Source of the DNA: Raja brachyura
Taxonomy: Eukaryota
Direction: 5' to 3'
DNA length: 64,000 nucleotides
Assembly: GCA_963514005.1 (NCBI GenBank)
Contig: OY740799.1
Span: 9,052,001 to 9,116,000 of the forward strand
Shown here: piece after piece, positions 7,533 through 63,100 of the stretch
Layout of the letters: every line of letters starts with the position of its first letter
Numbering within the stretch: position 1 is the first letter of the stretch
Position numbers and translations under genes: made by a program
The notes under the pieces: model-generated
The model's input: only the letters and a program-made list of their open reading frames with translations
What the model was told of the DNA's origin: nothing
Database searches by the model: none

Positions 7533-7667
7533 CAGTCCGAAGAAGGTTCTTGACCCAACACATCACCTATTCCTTTTCTCCAGAGATGATGTCTGACCCG
7601 CTGAGTTACTCCAGCTTTCTATGTCTATCTTCGGTTTAAACCAGCATCTGCAGTTCTTTCCTATACA
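7533..7667 (+). mobile_element. Short Penelope-pLTR-derived element (degenerate hammerhead core)
   Basis: agtccgaagaagg..gaccc..catcacctattcc..gctgagttactccagc..ccagcatctgcagttc. Confidence 0.7.
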
Positions 7668-7994: not shown

Positions 7995-8122
7995 GGTGTT
8001 AAAGAAGGAACTGCAGATGCTGGAAAATCGAGGGTACACAAAATGCTGGAGCAACTCAGCAGGTGCAGTAGCATCTATGGAGCGAAGGAGATAGGCAACG
8101 TTCGGCCCAAAACCCTTCTTCA
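7995..8122 (-). mobile_element. Short Penelope-pLTR-derived element
   Basis: gaaggaactgcagatgctgg..gcagcatctatggagcgaaggagataggcaacgttcgg..cccttcttca. Confidence 0.7.
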
Positions 8123-8751: not shown

Positions 8752-8964
8752 AGGTGTGTAAGAAGGAGCTGCAGATGCTGGTTTAAACTGAAGATAGATA
8801 CAAAAAGCTGGAGTAACTCAGCGGGACAGACAGCATCTCTGGAGAGAAGGAGTGGGTGACATTTCGGTCTGAAGAAGGGTCTCGACCCGAAACATCACCC
8901 ATTCCGTCTCTCCAAAGATGCTGCCTGTCCCACTGAGTTACTCCAGCTTTTAGTGTCTATCTTC
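8752..8964. mobile_element. Palindromic Penelope-pLTR-derived element with hammerhead-like core
   Basis: Inverted arms flank ctgaagaagggtctcgacccgaaacatc (8869-8896). Confidence 0.8.
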
Positions 8965-15700: not shown

Positions 15701-16706
15701 GAAATGAGTACCACTGTCTCAAATACAGTTCTAAACGTCCAATGATTCCAGTGCTCTACTCCCCTTGGTGGCACCACGCAGTGTTCCTGGCCTCAGTTGT
15801 ACTTTGACAGGGATAGGCAGAATGTTGCCTTGTGCTTACCCATTGGAGGTGAGAAGATTAGTGAACAAATAACAGCAATGCTTGAATGAAAAGTACATCA
15901 TTTCCATGGCTCTCACTAACATTTCAAAATTCCTAATGGTAAGCCCATGAAATTATAGGCACCTCAACTCTCAAAGAAGGAAAAGTAAACATTTGTCCTT
16001 GCAAACTACACCAATGACGGCAAAGTACATAACATTTATCTTGTATTTTCGACCGCTTAACTACAACTACAGTTAGCACCGGCATAAGTATTGAGGCTTC
16101 CTGGCTACACACTTGAAATAATTCCTCTGAGGACAATTAGCAGTTCCAGATAAGTTATTTTATTTTATTCCGCATTTCAAATTGGCCTTCACAAAAAGAA
16201 GGTTAAAGATTAAAGACTTCCTAGCAACTTTCAAAACATATTTATGGAGAGGAAGCCTTTCAATCAGAGCCAAGTATATTCTCAAAAGAAGGGTATTGCT
16301 GATATACATTGCTATAATGAATTGCGATCATCTAATAATCATTTCTGTTTGCTTTGTTAGTATCGCTCAATAAACAATCTCACCACTTTCTAAATAAAGA
16401 ATGACTTGGGCCTCTTCAGCTGCGTTAGGAAACTCACACATATAAGTTAAGTTGTTAACCACCAACACGTGTGCTCCCACCTCTAATCCTGCAGTGTGCT
16501 TTGTGACTTTGTGACTTCCATGGCAAAACAGTTGAAACAGTAAACTCTCTTGTGCAGTGCCCCCACAATAAACGGACCTTGGCCTTGACATTGACTACAC
16601 TACATGTGACTCAACACTTTGCAGTTTATACCATGATTACATTATGTCATAACCAAATTCCAGTTTTGCTCAAATTCAATAAAAAAAATGCATTCAGTTT
16701 GATGTT

Positions 16707-17437
16707 AGACAAAAATGCTGGAGAAACTCAGCGGCTGAGGCAGCATCTATGAGGTGAAGGAATAGGTGACGTTTCTGGTCGAGACCCTTCTTAACTGTGA
16801 GGTGAGGGGGCGGAAAGAAGAAAGGAAGAGGACACAGTAGGCTGTGGGAGAGCTGGGAAGGAGGGACTACCTGATATTGGAGAAGTAAATGTAAATGTTG
16901 AAATATGAGGTGATGCTCCTCCAATTTGCGGTGGGACTCACTCTGGCCATGGAAGAGGCCCAGGACAGAAAGGTCGGATTCGGAATGGGAGGGGGAGTTT
17001 AAGTGCTGGGCCACCGGGAGATCAGGTTGGTTAGTGCGAACCGAGCGGAGGTATTGGGCGAAGCGATCGCCAAGCCTCCGACATTTTCACCACCTCCAAC
17101 GGGATCCACATCTGGCCACATCTTCCCATCTTCTCCTATTTCCGCTTTCCGCAGAGACCGCTCCCTCCATAACTCCCTGGTCAATTTGTGAACATTGACT
17201 TCTCCAATTCCAGGTAGTCCTTGCTTTCTCCCTCCTTCCCTGCTCTCCCACAGCCTACTGTCTCCGCTTCTTCCTTTCTTCTTCCCCCCGGCCCCCATCT
17301 CCACATCAGTCTTAAGAAGGGTCTCGACCCGAAACGTCACCTATTCCTTTGCTCCATAGATGCTGCCTCACCCACTGAGTTTCTCCAGCATTTTTGTCTA
17401 CCTTCGATTTTTCCAGCATCTGCAGTTCTTTCTTAAA
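16707..17437 (+). mobile_element. Penelope-like element fragment with inverted 5' pLTR and 16-bp TSD
   Basis: Flanked by CATTCAGTTTGATGTT at 16691-16706 and 17438-17453. The inverted segment encodes a GIY-YIG C-terminus (AQHLNSPSHSESDLSVLGL..RKLEEHHLIF). pLTR is present at both ends in opposite orientation. Confidence 0.88.
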
Positions 17438-17773
17438 CATTCAGTTTGATGTTGAATAGTTAGTCTTTATTTCTGGAATGCTGATTCTTAACTTACGTAG
17501 CATAGTACACTTTATTATAGAATTTTAGTAATGAAAAATGTTATGGTCTATCCATTTCACTGAGTTTACTGATTGATTATCCTTCAAGTTTGCTATTTTG
17601 GATGGTGTCCAAACTTAAATTTGAAGAATACTACTTCAAACTCTCATGCTAACTCAATGTTATTCACATTATTCCCCTTATCATGTGGATGGCTCGATTG
17701 TAATCATTTATTGTCTTTCTGCTGACTGGTTAGCACGCAACAAAGGTTTTCACTGTACCTTGGTACACGTGGT

Positions 17774-22977: not shown

Positions 22978-23303
22978 AATGTGGAAACGAGGAACTGCAG
23001 ATGCTAGTTTACAAAAGAAGACACCAAAAGCTGAAATAGTTAAGCAAGTCAGTCAGCAACTATGGAGAACATGGATAGGTGACGTTTCAGATTGGGATGG
23101 TTCTTCAGACTCTGAGAGAGGAGAACTTCTTTAAAATGGGCATACCTTGAGGAGATTTTGCAGTGGAGCAGTGAAATATGGAAAAAGGAAACTGCAAATG
23201 CTGGTTTACAAAAGAAGACACAAAGTGCTGGAGTAGCTCAGTAGGTCAGGCAGCATCTCTGGAGAACATGGACAGGTGACAAGGGTCGGGACCCTTCTTC
23301 AGC
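22978..23303 (-). mobile_element. Partial-tandem Penelope pLTR pair
   Basis: Two direct copies of gaactgcagatgct..acaaaagaagacac..ggagaacatgga(t/c)aggtgac..ttcttcag about 200 nt apart. Confidence 0.7.
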
Positions 23304-23740: not shown

Positions 23741-24709
23741 GTATGTTCTTCATTTAAATTAAGGCCAATTCAATCTAAATTACATTAATGTAGCATTTTA
23801 ATGTAGCAAAATTTCCCAAGGCACATAACAAAAGAATGAACAAATTGTGTACCAAACTACAAAAAGGATAGATGAACAATAATTTGATCAAAGATATATG
23901 TTTCCTGCATCTTAAAATTGTGGAAGTGTAGGTGAGAGCATTGAGGAACCAATTATAGATCATTGGCAGTTGGTCGCTGAAGGCATTGAGCCAACGGTGG
24001 AGCGATTTACATTTGGTAAAGATCAAGGAGGTCAGACTACAAAAACATGTATTAATTTAGGACCTTCAACGTAAAAAATATCCTGAGGCATTTCACAATG
24101 ATATTAGCATGCATATTATGATTTAATATCCTTTAATAGTCCACTAATGTGTTCTTTGACCAGTTACTCATGACTGCTGTGGTTTTTATGTGAAAACCAA
24201 TTTGAAGTTTTCTCAGAGGCAAATGTGTGCTGTTTATGTCTGGGTAAGTGCATGTCGAACAGACAAAAACCTGTTTCTCGTAGATTATAAGAAAATGGTT
24301 ATGTACATCTCAAACGATGCCATACTAATCGTTTTTAACAACAGACATTTCAGAGATTATGCAAATAATGTGTAATGTGGTTTAAACTTTGAAAAAAAAA
24401 GGCAATTGCAGGGTCCCATACTGCGATTTTTAATATTTGTGTCATGTGAAATTTTAGTGAATGTTGTATCTTGCATGTATTGCTTTTGGGCATCAACTTT
24501 CCACTCTGCAATCCCCCATAAATGTTGATGCTGTTTTCATATTTTTACTGCTCCAGGGTGCAGAGGGATTTACTTTACACATACTTAGTACATGCTGCAG
24601 CGGCAAGGCGAGGACAATACCACTGCTTGAGCCATGGCTCAGAATCTAAAGTGCTACAACGACCTCTTTGATTATGGACTAAATTCAAAATATTCAACAG
24701 GTTCTTCAC

Positions 24710-24876
24710 GTCGCCTAAAGCTGAAGAAGGGTCTCGACCCGAAACGTCGCCTAAACTGAAGAAGGGTCTCGACCCGAAACGTCGCCTAAAGCTGAAGAAG
24801 GGTCTCGACCCGAAACGTCGCCTATCTCCTTAGATGCTGCTGCACCCGCTGATTTTCTCCAGCCTTTTGTGTACCC
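24710..24876 (+). mobile_element. Penelope-pLTR-derived insertion with three tandem hammerhead-like cores
   Basis: CTGAAGAAGGGTCTCGACCCGAAACGTC at 24721, 24756 and 24792. TSD TCTTCAC at 24703-24709 and 24877-24883. Confidence 0.8.
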
Positions 24877-25164
24877 TCTTCACTCACATTGTTTGGGGGA
24901 GAAGAGAGAGAGGTTTTAATTCGCTGAAGGATGAGATTGATTAAAATGTTCAAATGTAAAAATTTCAAACATGATCAATATCCATCCACTGCCAGATTTA
25001 ACAATGATGAGAGAGGACGTGATGGTGAATAATCGTCTCCAAGAATGTAGGACGGTCATTAAAGCATCATAGAGAGGCTCACTGGCAGCCTCAACGGCAA
25101 CAGCCATGAACATTAATCTGCGATCATAGCTCAGGAATCCAGACACTTTGCCTCCAACATTGAT

Positions 25165-25975
25165 ATTGGTTTATTATTGTTAAATGTACCCAGATACAAA
25201 TAAAACCTTTGTTTTGTGTTATCCAGGCAAATAATACCATACAAGAGTGCATCGTGCGGTGGAAAAGAGAAAATAAACAGAGTATTACAGTTACAGAGAA
25301 ACTGTAGATTTAAACATTACCAAGAGCCACGTGAGGTAGATTAGATTCGGAATTTATCCTGAGCAAGTGAAAGGTCCATTCATTGGTTAGATACCAAGGA
25401 AGAAGCTGTTCTTGAATCTGGGGATGCGCGTTTTCAAGATTTTGTATCTGCAGTCCACCAGGAGAGGGGAGAAGAGAGAATAAACAGAGTGGTCCTTGAT
25501 TATGTTGGCTGATTTCCCAAAGTGATGGGATGTGATGTAGATCGAGTTGGTGGGTGAGGAGACTTGTTTGTGTGATGGACTCTACTGTGTTCAGAACTCT
25601 GCAAATTACTTGCAGTCTTGGGCACAACAGTCACCATAACAAGCTCTGATGCACCCGGATAAGCTACTCTCTAGGTTAAATATGAGTCATTGGAAACAGG
25701 ATGAATTTCCTTAGCCTTCTGAGGAAATAGAGTTGTTGGTGTGCTTTCTTGGTCAGTTGGTCCAAGACAAATTGTTGGTGATATTTACACTTAGGAACAT
25801 GAAATACTTGACCACCTTCACTTGAGCACCGTTGACACAGACTGGGGTGTGTATTCTACTCAATTTCCTGAAGTCGACAATCAGCTCCTTCGTTTTGTTG
25901 ACATTGAAGGACAATGTTATTGAGCTCTCTATCTCCTTCCTGTACCCTGGTGGTGTCATCTACAAATTTATAAAT
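25165..25975 (-). mobile_element. Degraded Rex1/Babar LINE 3' part
   Basis: FVDDTT, LSFNVNKTKELIVDFRK..VKYFMFLSVNITNNLSWT. Confidence 0.75.
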
Positions 25976-26714: not shown

Positions 26715-29153
26715 ATATAACCATATAACAATTACAGCACGGAAACTGGCCTTCTCGGCCCTTCTAGTCCGTGCCGACCATTTATTTTCCCCTAGTCCCA
26801 TCTACCTGCACTCAGACCATACCCCTCCATTCCCTTCCCGTCCATATACCTATCCACTTTACTTTTAAATGTTAAAATCAATCCTGCCTCCACCACTTCT
26901 GCAGGAAGATCATTCCACACAGCCACCACTCTCTGAGTAAAGAAGTTCCCCCTCATGTTACCCCTAAACTTCTGTCCCTTAATTCTCATGTCATGCCCTC
27001 TTGTTTGAATCTTCCCTACCCTCAATGGGAAAAGCTTATCCACGTCAACTCTGTCTATCCCTTTCATCATTTTAAAGACCTCAATCAAGTCCCCCCTTAA
27101 CCTTCTGCGCTCCAAAGAATAAAGACCTAACTTGTTCAACTTTCTCTGTAACTTAGTTGCTGGAACCCAGGCAACATTCTAGTAAATCTCCTCTGTACTC
27201 TCTCTATTTTGTTGACATCCTTTCTATAATTAGGCAACCAAAATTGTACACCATACTCCAGAATTGGTCTCACCAATGCTTTGTACAATTTTAACAATAC
27301 TTCCCTACTCCTATATTCAATGCTCTGATTTATAAAGGCCAGCATACCACAAGCTTTCTTTACCACCCTATCTACATGCGATTCCACCTTCAGGGAACTA
27401 TGCACAGTTATTCCTAGATCCCTCTGTTCCACAGCATTCCTCTATTCCCTACCATTTACCATGTACGTCCTATTTTGATTTGTCCTGCCAAGATGTAGCA
27501 CCTCAAACTTATCAGCATTAAATTCCATCTGCCATCTTTCAGCCCACTCTTCCAAATGGCCCAAATCAGTCTGTAGACTTTGAAAATCTACTTCATTATC
27601 CACAGCACCACCCCTTAGTATCATCTGCATACTTACTTATCCAATTTTCCACCCCATCATCTAGATCATTGATGTACATGACAAACAACAGTGGACCCAA
27701 CACAGATCCCTGAGGCACCCCACTGGTCACCAGCTTCAAACCTGACAAACAGCCGTCCACCATTACTCTCTGACTTCTCCCATTCAGCCACTATTGAATC
27801 CATCTTGCTACTCCGCCATTAACACCCAAAGATTGAACCTTCTTAACCAACCTTCCATGGGGAACCTTGTCAAAGGCCTTACTGAAATCCATATAGACAA
27901 CATCCACTGCTTTACCCTCATCAATTTCTCTAGTAACCTCTTCAAAAAATTCAAGAAGGTTTGTCAAACATGACCTTCCAGGCACAAATCCATGTTGACT
28001 GTTCTTGATCAGACCCTGTTTATCCTGATGCTTATATATATATTATCTCTAAGTATCCTTTCCATTAATTTGCCCACCACTGACGTCAAACTAACAGGTC
28101 TATAATTGCTAGGTTTATTCTTTGAACTCTTTTTAAACAATGGAACAACATGCACAGTACGCCAATCCTCCGGCACTATTCCCGTTTCTAATGACATTTG
28201 AAATATTTCTGTCATAGCCCCTGCTATTTCTACACTAACTTCCCTCAATGTCCTAGGGAATATCCTGTCAGGACCTGGAGACTTATCCACTTTTATATTT
28301 TTCAAAAGTATCAGTACTTCCTCCTCTTTGAATCTCATAGTTTCCATAGCTACTCTACTTTTTTCCCTTACCTCACAGAGTTCAATATCCTTCTCCTTGG
28401 TGAATATCGAAGAAAAGAAATTGTTCAATATCTCCCCCATCTCTTTTGGTGCTGCAGATAGCTGTCCATTCTGGCTCTCTAATGGTCCAATTTTATCCCT
28501 CGTTATCCTTTTGCTATTAATATAGCTGTAGAAACCCTTTGGATTTACTTTCACATTTCTTGCCAAAGCAACCTCATATCTTCTTTTAGCTTTTCTTATT
28601 TCTTTCTTAAGATTCTTTTTACATTATTTATACTCATCTAGCACCTCATTTACTCCATGCCTCCTATAAATATTGTAGATATCTCTCTTTTTTTGAACCG
28701 TGTCCAATTTCCCTTGAAAACCGTGGCTCTTTCCGATTTTTACTATTTCCTTTCGACCGAACAGGGACATAAAGATTCTGTACTCTTACAATTTCCCCTT
28801 TAAATGTCTTCCATTTCTCTTCTACATCCTTCCCATAAAACTAAAAGTCCCAATTCACTCCTTTTAAATCATTACGCATTCCCTCAAAGTTAGCCTTTCT
28901 CCAATCAAAAATCTCAACCCTAGGTCCAGTTCTGACTCTCTCCATAATTATATTGAAACTAATGGTATTGTGATCACTGGTCCCGAAGTGCTCGCCAACG
29001 CATACCTCCATCACCTGACCTGCCTCATTTCCTAACAGGAGGTCCAGCAATGCCCCTTTTCTAGTCGATACCTCTATGTATTGCTGCAAATCCTGCACAC
29101 ATTTAACAAACTCCAAACCATCCAGCCCATTTACAGAATGTGTTTCCCAGTCT
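26715..29153 (-). mobile_element. CR1 LINE ORF2 (EN C-terminus, RT, C-terminus), 5' truncated, frameshifted
   Basis: LDLLLGN..FGTSDHN; KSPGPD; NYRPVSLTSVVGK; YMDFSKAFDKVPH; GVPQGSVLGP; YADD; (GTTATATG)n tail. Confidence 0.95.
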
Positions 29154-40142: not shown

Positions 40143-41784
40143 TTGTTAAAATAAATTCCAAAGTTTTAATTAAAAGTTGTTGAAACTAATCTCCAATGCA
40201 CCAAATATTTCTATCCTAAAGATTAAGTGATCCAAAGGTGAACTGAAACTTTTTTTGGCACGTCTCAAGAACACAATAGCAATGGGTATAGGCCATTGTG
40301 CCCTTTAAACATGTCCGTCATTCAATATCATGCTGATCTGCCTCAGGCCTCAACACCTTTTCTGTGCCAGTTCCACAGAGCCCTCAATTCCCGTGAACTT
40401 TCATAAAATGTATTTACTTCCTCTTTAAATTTCTCCTATGTTCTCCCCCCCCCCCCCCATCACACCAAATATTTTGGAGTTTTTAAGACAAAAACAAATC
40501 TCAGAAATAAATTGTTGATATCCAATCATCAAACTAAATAACAGGCTGAAATTAATTGCAACTGTTCTTGAGCACTGAAATGTGTTTTACTGCAAAATCT
40601 ATTAATGGTGTTGTTATCAAAGCACGACCAAATACATTCATCATTAAGATGCAAAAATATACAATGCAACATTGCACATGATAAACATGATTGTCCAGTT
40701 CCAAAAGATAGACACAGAAAGTTGGAGTAACTCAGCGGGTCAGACAACATCTCTGGAGAAAAGGAACAGGTGATATTTCGGGAGTCACAGAGTTCTGCAC
40801 TGCTGTGAAATTGTCCACTTGGTTTTGACTTCCGCTGCCACAGCTGAAAACCATTATATATTATTGAGGTCAAGTACTTTATAACTGAAAGATCCCAGAT
40901 ACAGGTCCTCAGACTAAATCCTGAAGTGCTTCAGCAAGGATTTTTGAAAATCCAGGTAGTTTGAACTGTAGGTAAGTAGGTTATGTCTGGTCCCAGATTA
41001 TTCTAAAGATATCACTTTTCATGTTATCTTAGATCATTAACACCAAAAAAGTAATCAACTACATAAACTGTAGCTGTACTTGAATGGCTTATTAAACCAT
41101 AAGAACAGGCGAAATATGAAACAATCAACAATCAGTTAGATTAACTTCTCTAGCAGATTGTTTGTTGCTCCAGATTCCAGCATCCGCAGTCTCTTGTGTC
41201 TCTAAATATGAAGCAGATGTTTCTCTGCAATATTTGCATACTTTTGGGACCAACATTATTTGCTGCATTCAGCTTATTCAGCCATTCCCTGACAATAAAT
41301 TTGCTAAAAGTTTCCTTCTCTGATGGTAGGTGGTCAAGAGTAGACCGAAATGTATCTTTGCATCTACAAATGATTAATTTGGTCTTGTCTTGTACACTCT
41401 TGTGTTGGGCCTGCCTCCAATGAACTGTTTAATTCTGCACTGTTATTCATAATTGGATGTGGCAGGGCTGAAGCTTTGATCTGAACCATTCATTTTGGGA
41501 GCACTTAGCTGTATCTGAAACATGCTGCTTTAATTATTTAGTAAACATTTTGTCTTGCAGCTTCACTTGGTAGGTATATCAATTTCAGGTGCAAACGATG
41601 TCTGTCTTGACATATTCTACATATTCACAATAAAGCAAGGTTGGTCCCACCAGAGATTGGGGGTAATTGGAGTGCAATAAATATGCAACACCATGTGTTT
41701 ATGGATGTGCTGGTAAATAATGATACTGTAACCCATGGTAGTTGGGCCCATTCCACCCTCACCTCGATCCGGATCTGCACATCA

Positions 41785-49524: not shown

Positions 49525-50525
49525 TGAAGACTATTCCCTACTCCCAATTCCTCCGCCTGCGCCGCATCTGTGCTCAGGATGAGGTTTTCCCATACCAGAT
49601 CATCGGAGATGTCCTCATTCTTTATGAAATGGGGGTTCCCCTCTTCCATTATAGATGAGGCTCTCACTAGAGTCTCATCGATATCGTGCAGCTCCGCTCT
49701 TGCTCCCCCTCCCCCCAGTCGTAACAAGGACAGAGTCCCCTTGTCCTCACCTTCCACCCCATCAGCCGTCGCATACAACATATAATCAATCCTCCGCCAT
49801 TTTTGCCACCTCCAACAGGATCCCACTATTGACCACATCTTCCCATCTCCACCCCTTTCTGCTTCCCGCTGAGACTGTTCCCTCCGCAACTCCCTGGTCA
49901 ACTCGTCCCTTCCCACCCAAACCACCCCATCTCCAGGTACTTGCAACCGCATGCGATGCAACACCTGCCCCTTTACCTCCCCCCTCGACTCCATCCAAGG
50001 ACCCCGACAATCTTTCCAGGTGAGGCAGAGGTTCACTTGCACCTCCTCCAACCTCATCTACTGTATCCGCTGTTCCAGGTGTCAACTTCTGTACATCGGC
50101 GAGACCAAGCGCAGGCTTGACGATCATTTCACTGAACACCTCCGCTCAGCCCGTCTTAACCTACCTGATCTCTCAGTTACTCAGCACTTTAACTCCCCCT
50201 CCCATTCCCAATCTGGCCTTTCTATCCTGGGCCTCCTCCATTGCCAGAGAGTGGCCCAGAACAAATTGGAGAAACAGCACCTCATATTTCGCTTGGGTAA
50301 GCTTACACCACAGCGGTATAAACATTGACTTCTCTAACTTCAAATAGCCCTTGCTTTCCCTCTCTCCCCATCCCTTCCCCCTTCCCAGTTCTCCCACCAG
50401 TCTTACTGTCTCCAATTACATTCTATCTCTGTTCCGCCCACTCCTTTGACATCAGTCTGAAGAAGGGTCTCGACCAGAAATATCACCCTTTCCTTCTGTT
50501 ACTCCAGCATTTTGTGTCCACCTTC
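49525..50525 (+). mobile_element. Penelope-like element 3' part: RT C-terminal region, GIY-YIG endonuclease, pLTR
   Basis: IPYSQFLRLRRIC; CNTC; NLIYCIRCSRCQLLYIGETKRRL..FTEH (GIY-YIG with Cys/His motif); followed by tcagtctgaagaagggtctcgaccagaaa. Confidence 0.92.
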
Positions 50526-62744: not shown

Positions 62745-63100
62745 GGTTTACACAAAATAACACAGTGTTGGAGTAACTCAGCAGATCAGACAGCATCTCC
62801 AGAGAACATGGATAAGTGACGTTTCAGGTCGGCATCCTTCTTCAGACTGATTGTACGTGGAGTGGGTGGGAAGAATGCTGGGAGAGTAGGCAGGCCAATG
62901 CTTTGCAATATGGGTGGACACAGGTGAGGGAGAGGATTTTGATAGGCAGGCGGTTGGAATAAGTGCCAGAGATTAATGCAGGTGTGAAACAGACCAATTG
63001 AAGAGTCGCAAATTGTGAAGCCAGAGGAAGGAATGGAGGAGGGGAAAGGAGGACAGGATAAATCGGTGTGTGTCCAGAAGGGGTACAGGAGAGGGGTGAA
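62745..63100 (-). mobile_element. Penelope pLTR fragment with hammerhead-like core
   Basis: Minus strand tcagtCTGAAGAaggatgccgacctGAAAcgtcac, preceded by a pyrimidine-rich PLE 3' region. Confidence 0.65.

Follow-up and report, generated by a model that had tools for sequence, protein, structure and literature searches.

Partial tandem copies, inverted arms and tails are standard in Penelope-like elements (PLEs), according to the available text of two accounts (PMC2377424, PMC3846280), the former of which states their cause to be unknown. For EN+ PLEs of the Neptune type, the features described are partial tandems, inverted 5′ copies and an optional tail of 30-40 bp (available parts of PMC8557442 and PMC2377424), and a CX2-5CxxC motif between RT and EN is given there as common to Neptune and Nematis PLEs (PMC8557442). 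The minimal hammerhead ribozymes (min-HHRs) of metazoan PLEs have CUGANGA and GAAA boxes, an extra base between positions 9 and 10.1, a G10.1-C11.1 pair, a palindromic helix III region and a helix I of 4-5 bp in S. mansoni and 2 bp in D. virilis; engineered min-HHR dimers and trimers cleave weakly (PMC4209133, as far as its text was available). For Poseidon PAc of Anolis, the accessible description names uncut RNA as the main template, two internal RT starts that define the tail, a homology-free start and a hammerhead that depends on protein help (PMC11167929). Non-LTR retrozymes, proposed to derive from pLTRs, are tandem non-coding units of 51-972 bp, each with a type I hammerhead core (available text of bioRxiv 10.64898/2026.07.22.740005), and concatemers made from linear RNA have been shown for DRT2 (PMC12039810, available part). 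Within the scope of our literature search (main texts, including a minority of subscription papers), we found no account of micro-tandem hammerhead cores at the 5′ ends of PLEs.

The locus considered here lies in a 64,000-nucleotide stretch of Raja brachyura DNA (the window) and consists of three hammerhead cores on the forward strand, identical without a single mismatch, which are followed by a pLTR stretch of 57 nt and bounded by short direct repeats (Table 1). The earlier note had read the cores and the pLTR tail in the same way, and both are present exactly as it placed them. TRF resolves the trimer as 3.3 copies of a 36-nt period at 97%. Allowing up to three mismatches brings the cores of the window to seven, the four additional ones being diverged, whereas 100 shuffles gave none. 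At least nine other, older copies of this repeat lie in the 64 kb (7533-7660, 7998-8122, 8760-8956, 16704-16792, 17307-17438, 22990-23302, 40712-40782, 50453-50480 and 62769-62849), that at 8760-8956 being an inverted pair. Elsewhere, the window contains a minisatellite (1846-2260; 18 copies of 23 bp, 96% matches) adjoining G-rich repeats at 1575-1777, and two open frames on the minus strand (26792-27178 and 28009-28623) that resemble fragments of a CR1-type LINE.

Table 1 Features of the hammerhead trimer and its flanks, in window coordinates
Feature	Position	Strand	Remarks
Left target-site duplication, 7 of the original 11-12 nt surviving	24703..24709	+	organism C retains 5 extra target bases; empty site in organisms D, E and F
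Fourth-unit remnant: cleavage triplet and 8-nt spacer, via a putative 26-bp deletion between two AC dinucleotides	24710..24720	+	same junction in organisms A and B; letters of run X7
Minimal hammerhead core 1 (28 nt): CUGANGA box, extra A, 4-bp helix II, GAAA box, palindromic ACGU, GUC; helix I 0 bp	24721..24748	+	
Junction, 7 nt: 5 nt of post-cleavage sequence and 2 untemplated A, without the G present in the other two junctions	24749..24755	+	
Minimal hammerhead core 2 (28 nt); helix I 0 bp	24756..24783	+	
Junction, 8 nt: 5 nt of post-cleavage sequence and 3 untemplated nt ending in G; 1 exact genome occurrence	24784..24791	+	
Minimal hammerhead core 3 (28 nt); helix I 0 bp	24792..24819	+	
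pLTR portion between the cleavage site and 3′ end point 1 of two (probable RT start site 1); 8-nt deletion common to a subfamily; without the 34-nt tail	24820..24876	+	
Right target-site duplication of 11-12 nt; both terminal bases ambiguous	24877..24888	+	

The conserved boxes, the NUH triplet and the helix II of a minimal type I hammerhead can all be read from the sequence, as can the lack of helix I on which the earlier note had remarked. The cores thus share with metazoan min-HHRs the two boxes, the extra base between 9 and 10.1, the G10.1-C11.1 pair and the palindromic helix III region, and their helix II is of 4 bp; helix I, by contrast, amounts to 2 bp in the parent element and to nothing in the trimer (comparison with the available text of PMC4209133). 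Across 80 junctions of the same kind in the genome (defined below), helix I has 2 bp in 67 and at least 3 bp in 6. Predicted energies show no gain for helix III formed in cis (-14.1 against -14.4 kcal/mol), and the minimum free energy, -28.3 kcal/mol, belongs to an alternative fold, although such predictions are not final because the PAc hammerhead needs protein. In the window, no Rfam family, the hammerhead included, was matched at its gathering score, and the search returned a chance osmY match near the locus (E 4.3). With helix I lost, the window trimer is predicted to have no catalytic activity. Among natural arrays, the strongest candidate for activity as a tandem hammerhead, as far as folding models can tell, would be L029 (G000:C2:84281120, minus strand), a three-core array in which helix I is restored to 6 bp in the last core and to 4 bp in the middle core, the latter with a core substitution.

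The trimer derives from an abundant element. A 61-nt pattern representing the single core has 6,378 exact copies in the genome searched (2.7 Gb). In the parent element the core is preceded by a 3′ UTR of about 240 nt and an ORF that combines RT and GIY-YIG with a C-x4-C-x2-C linker between them, which bears out the Penelope-like pLTR origin that had been proposed from the window alone. Pfam matches on the parent ORF are all below gathering scores (RVT_1, E 3.6e-5 to 3.9e-4; GIY-YIG, E 2e-4 to 9e-4), the RT and GIY-YIG motifs are visible in a 774-aa frame (L204:2911-5232:-), and a PDB sequence search with the RT-EN frame gave no matches. Full units stand head to tail at two loci (4,043 bp in L204, 3,930 bp in L205) and inverted arms occur at many, as is characteristic of EN+ PLEs with pLTRs. 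On this sequence evidence the parent appears to be a Neptune-type EN+ PLE, the linker motif alone also fitting Nematis. In L204 (G000:C2:3637500-3645500), about 136 nt separate the cleavage triplet from the first ATG, and a low-complexity stretch divides the N-terminal part from an RT-EN part that is read in another frame.

The ends of individual copies are informative on both sides. At the 3′ side, of the 84 copies parsed (94 tried), 56 end at point 1 and the other 28 at point 2, which lies 34 nt further on, in keeping with the optional tail of EN+ PLEs; the window copy ends at point 1 and falls in the subfamily with the 8-nt deletion. At the 5′ side, 28 relatives from this subfamily, unselected for their 5′ end, begin 0-7 nt upstream of the core in 16 cases, in the first core bases in 3, at 8-60 nt in 4 and further upstream in 5, a distribution from a query that under-samples copies cut deep within the core. 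We take the bases at this apparent 5′ end to match the initiator consensus YYANWYY. Inverted 5′ arms (L121, L126, L127, L129, L130, L144, L158, L176 and L180) start in most cases at either 3′ end point and frequently extend to the apparent RNA start, a pattern that priming of reverse transcription from both target strands would be expected to produce. The family resembles Poseidon PAc in the two 3′ end points defining the tail, the homology-free start and the putatively uncut RNA template; it belongs to another clade, and re-initiation at the RNA 5′ end and micro-tandems are absent from the available description of PAc (PMC11167929).

The age and original shape of the insertion were read from Logan contigs of related organisms aligned to the site (7 of 20 listed runs; joints of run X7 inside the repeat were excluded, as they may derive from other loci). 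Empty orthologous sites, which the earlier note had suggested looking for, are present in three relatives: one contig of organism E skips exactly 174 nt (joint 24704->24879), and in organisms D and F the left flank continues directly into the right flank. The left junction of the window is common to contigs of organisms A and B, in which the first core is seen as well. Organism C also carries the insertion; in one contig (run X7) its left flank follows the target sequence for another 5 nt before meeting a core that lacks its first 4 bases. Flanks of A and C differ by about 1%. Contigs of A and B reach from 24400 to 24746 and from about 24850 to 25200; since no listed short-read contig spans either of the two inner junctions, the number of units in A is that of the assembly.

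The longer left flank of organism C implies an original target duplication of 11-12 bp. Among the 84 parsed copies of the family, duplications measure 10-18 bp in 52 (mode 14-15 bp) and 6-9 bp in 15, where they can be chance, and 17 have none. The 7-bp duplication recognized in the earlier note therefore stands as a direct repeat, its right copy at 24877-24883, but not as the original duplication. Removing 26 bp between two AC dinucleotides from the C-type sequence reproduces the left end of the window exactly, and both the 7-bp repeat and the GTC at which the insertion starts are probably products of such a later deletion, to judge from one contig of one run. Being secondary, they are uninformative on cleavage; an RNA end made by cleavage would in any case begin after GUC rather than at it, and the proposal that the GTC start marks ribozyme cleavage is thereby given up, the more so given how rarely junctions elsewhere in the genome fit an end at the cleavage site. 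The truncated extra core of organism C, taken with the later deletion, indicates that the insertion once had at least a partial fourth unit.

The trimer is far from isolated. Core-to-core junctions number at least 617 genome-wide (305 + 312), a lower bound given that the pattern takes only spacers of 3-14 nt, and their spacers are heterogeneous; a reversed-pattern control returned none. The array is accordingly not the single-locus accident that the earlier note had named as a refutation. We parsed 89 loci, namely the window and 88 among the first 100 of the 617 matches listed (contigs C1-C5), after removal of L009 (near duplicate of L008), L028 (part of the array of L027), L103 (duplicate of L102) and the last 3 listed matches. 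A young tail is present in 66 of the 89, which yielded 83 junctions, 80 of them short, and the 23 loci without one were left out. At L047/L055, L053/L054 and L102/L103 the same insertion and flanks occur at two places, representing segmental duplicates or uncollapsed haplotypes.

Spacers at these junctions share a common makeup: 0-9 nt following the cleavage triplet, then mostly 0-3 untemplated nt, then mostly the last 2-7 nt before the core, for a unit length of 31-44 nt. Restart points peak at 3, 5 and 6-7 and drop at 8 even where the pattern permits 10, and a 3′ end at the cleavage site itself is compatible with only 5 of the 80 junctions. Longer restarts were seen as well, at +13 (L209), +23 (L042) and +34 (L014), and several among 20 loci picked for their 5′ UTR have one at about +170-215; since these are of the same type, the trimer represents the short end of a continuum of partial tandems. 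Compared with the partial tandems of EN+ PLEs in the sources cited above, as far as available, the upstream truncated copy here is just 31-44 nt long and repeated, joining the region past the triplet to the apparent RNA start. The 5′-most unit begins within the core at 19 of 66 loci.

At 40 of 49 junctions a G is the untemplated base adjoining the templated 5′ end (39 of 48 when a row consisting of flank is set aside; p = 5e-12 against 1/3). Extra 5′ G has served as an argument for capped LINE-1 RNA (PMC2831318, available text). Where 5′ ends are joined to target DNA, G stands in 3 of 10 monomers and 13 of 32 5′-most units, and a cap is thus not forced as the explanation, because the excess is strong at inner junctions only. 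Two other sources of the G were considered and rejected: a 3′ splice site (AG before the core, as in D. virilis), since no constant first-exon sequence precedes the junctions, and a subfamily in which this G is templated, since read-through copies show a pyrimidine at the position. Likewise discarded, on inspection, was a geometric jump across helix I, which would tie the restart to the 5′ end: a 3-nt suffix goes with restarts anywhere from 0 to 9.

How junctions vary within and between arrays bears most directly on their origin. Independent templates would give unlike junctions within an array, and a closed circle or DNA slippage identical ones. In 13 young arrays with at least two short junctions (15 neighbouring pairs), spacers of neighbours differ by a mean edit distance of 1.2, compared with 4.3 between arrays (3,223 pairs), a value as low as that within arrays being reached in none of 20,000 random draws. 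Only 2 of the 15 neighbouring pairs are identical (0.6% of the between-array pairs are), and 11 are unequal in length. In four arrays (window, L030, L121 and L172) an optional G is the whole difference between junctions, and in two (L020 and L140) the junctions are unlike. The cores themselves are stable: no substitution is common to the units of any of the 13 young arrays, and none of 34 scanned cores has an indel, a count biased low because the finder requires near-intact core ends. Constant ends with a variable middle suggest repeated passes over the same two ends. The array L208 (G000:C5:56079899) has four units with a 5-nt restart point at all three junctions, and its 5′ ends differ, two lying within the core. 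Three older arrays (L123, L160 and L163), having core variants in common or identical spacers repeated, show signs of DNA-level duplication.

Our results suggest that the trimer, one of at least 617 micro-tandem junctions situated at the 5′ ends of short insertions of this element, probably originated from the RT of the element jumping repeatedly at the RNA 5′ end during integration. Template jumps were among the origins that the earlier note had envisaged, and neighbouring junctions that are near-identical yet variable in length speak for them. In such a scheme the RNA would begin, probably capped, 0-6 nt upstream of the core, and the RT, with an internal start some 66 or 100 nt beyond the cleavage triplet, would copy the uncut RNA through the hammerhead. 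Running off at the 5′ end, it would add 0-3 untemplated bases (often C, that is, plus-strand G) and restart without homology 0-9 nt past the triplet; re-use of the same two ends would generate the 31-44 nt units with their near-identical, length-variable junctions, after which the jumped product would be joined to the target. Shortening of the left end by the 26-bp deletion would have followed later, in the ancestor common to organisms A and B. The scheme itself does not account for the constancy of the restart point within one array. The scheme resembles known head-to-tail copying of one template segment in its run-off, untemplated additions and restart, and differs from it in being rare and imprecise (restart at 0-9 nt, variable 5′ end), in using no realignment homology and in being apparently a by-product.

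The same regularities could also have arisen one step later. In the main rival to jumps on RNA, which we hold to be unlikely, the target end is extended by about 36 nt on the finished cDNA, released and re-primed at the cDNA 3′ end, by the RT or by a host end-joining polymerase. This would explain untemplated bases that are often common to all junctions of an array (window, L029, L144 and L158) as well as the 5′-most units that begin within the core, and for R2 the priming of the second strand is described as involving microhomology and untemplated bases (PMC2718515, available part). The variable G of the window, however, sits beside the core, inside the common untemplated stretch, where a fixed cDNA end would not drop it, and copying would still have to stop at a fixed point 0-9 nt past the triplet. 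Jumps made on RNA during first-strand synthesis are not told apart by these data from jumps at the end of the cDNA, either in second-strand synthesis or in host end-joining. Improbable, in our estimation, is a single RT-made dimer junction that slippage or unequal exchange at the DNA level afterwards multiplied, single nucleotides changing by chance. Two of the three window junctions are indeed identical, the locus was rearranged after insertion, and the older arrays noted above repeat spacers or core variants; but spacers of unequal length in 11 of 15 neighbouring pairs would then have to coexist with cores free of indels and of substitutions in common.

Rolling-circle reverse transcription of a closed 35-36 nt RNA, formed by hammerhead cleavage and ligation, is the model that the earlier note entertained as a mini-retrozyme, and we consider it very unlikely here. 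Rolling-circle copying has been proposed for PLE tandems (PMC4209133, available text), and unit ends are constant within an array as it requires. A closed circle nevertheless predicts the identical junctions that are so scarce among neighbours, cleavage-to-cleavage units would join at GUC, every array terminates in a normal pLTR stretch, and the units are shorter than the 51-972 bp consensus range of retrozymes given in the preprint cited above. Copy number does not support a mini-retrozyme family either, the exact window junction occurring once in 2.7 Gb and no second trimer being found among 40 scored candidates, the best other locus reaching 92% with different junctions. These arrays are like non-LTR retrozymes in their tandem arrangement, in being non-coding and derived from pLTRs, and in the type I hammerhead core of every unit, and unlike them, as far as the preprint text was available, in unit length, in cores that are complete but without helix I, and in a junction unique to each locus, with no constant-junction unit family and no evidence of unit spread. 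Retrozyme-sized tandem units of 311 and 328 nt do occur, at L206 (G000:C1:162938500-162942500) and L184/L185 (G000:C2:59590113-59590520), each unit joining the first 200-odd nt of the element to the end of its 3′ UTR. A functional cis-dimer ribozyme, maintained as adjacent cores supply each other's helix III, is highly implausible, even with intact, identical cores, weakly cleaving engineered dimers and trimers, and a PAc hammerhead helped by protein (PMC4209133 and PMC11167929, as above): helix I is worse than in the parent, cis pairing brings no predicted stability, the rarity of junctions with at least 3 bp of helix I gives no sign of selection for activity, and identity of cores is expected because the insertion is young. 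That an assembly artefact multiplied the core is scarcely credible; the inner junctions lack a spanning short-read contig, but the three junctions are not all identical, the first junction and first core are present in contigs of organisms A and B, and hundreds of similar junctions each have their own spacer.

The window locus itself is thus probably a dead by-product of an ordinary element, and the interest lies in the class. As a large natural record of what an RT does on reaching the 5′ end of its RNA, the micro-tandems argue for the hammerhead being copied uncut, and they lead to testable predictions: a start 0-6 nt before the hammerhead, addition of untemplated C, and a restart 0-9 nt past the triplet that is constant within one event. 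A stronger reading of the repeated jumps, which we put forward tentatively and regard as possible rather than probable, is that the RT re-copies the capped first 31-44 nt of one RNA several times, from its 5′ end to a fixed point past the triplet and without homology, a crude repeat-addition activity recorded at hundreds of loci, and that longer landings would regenerate pseudo-LTRs and seed retrozymes. If re-copying of this kind is true, the RT of this element, which comes from the sister group of telomerase, has a crude form of repeat addition, and landings further along the RNA may be the missing mechanism of pseudo-LTR regeneration.
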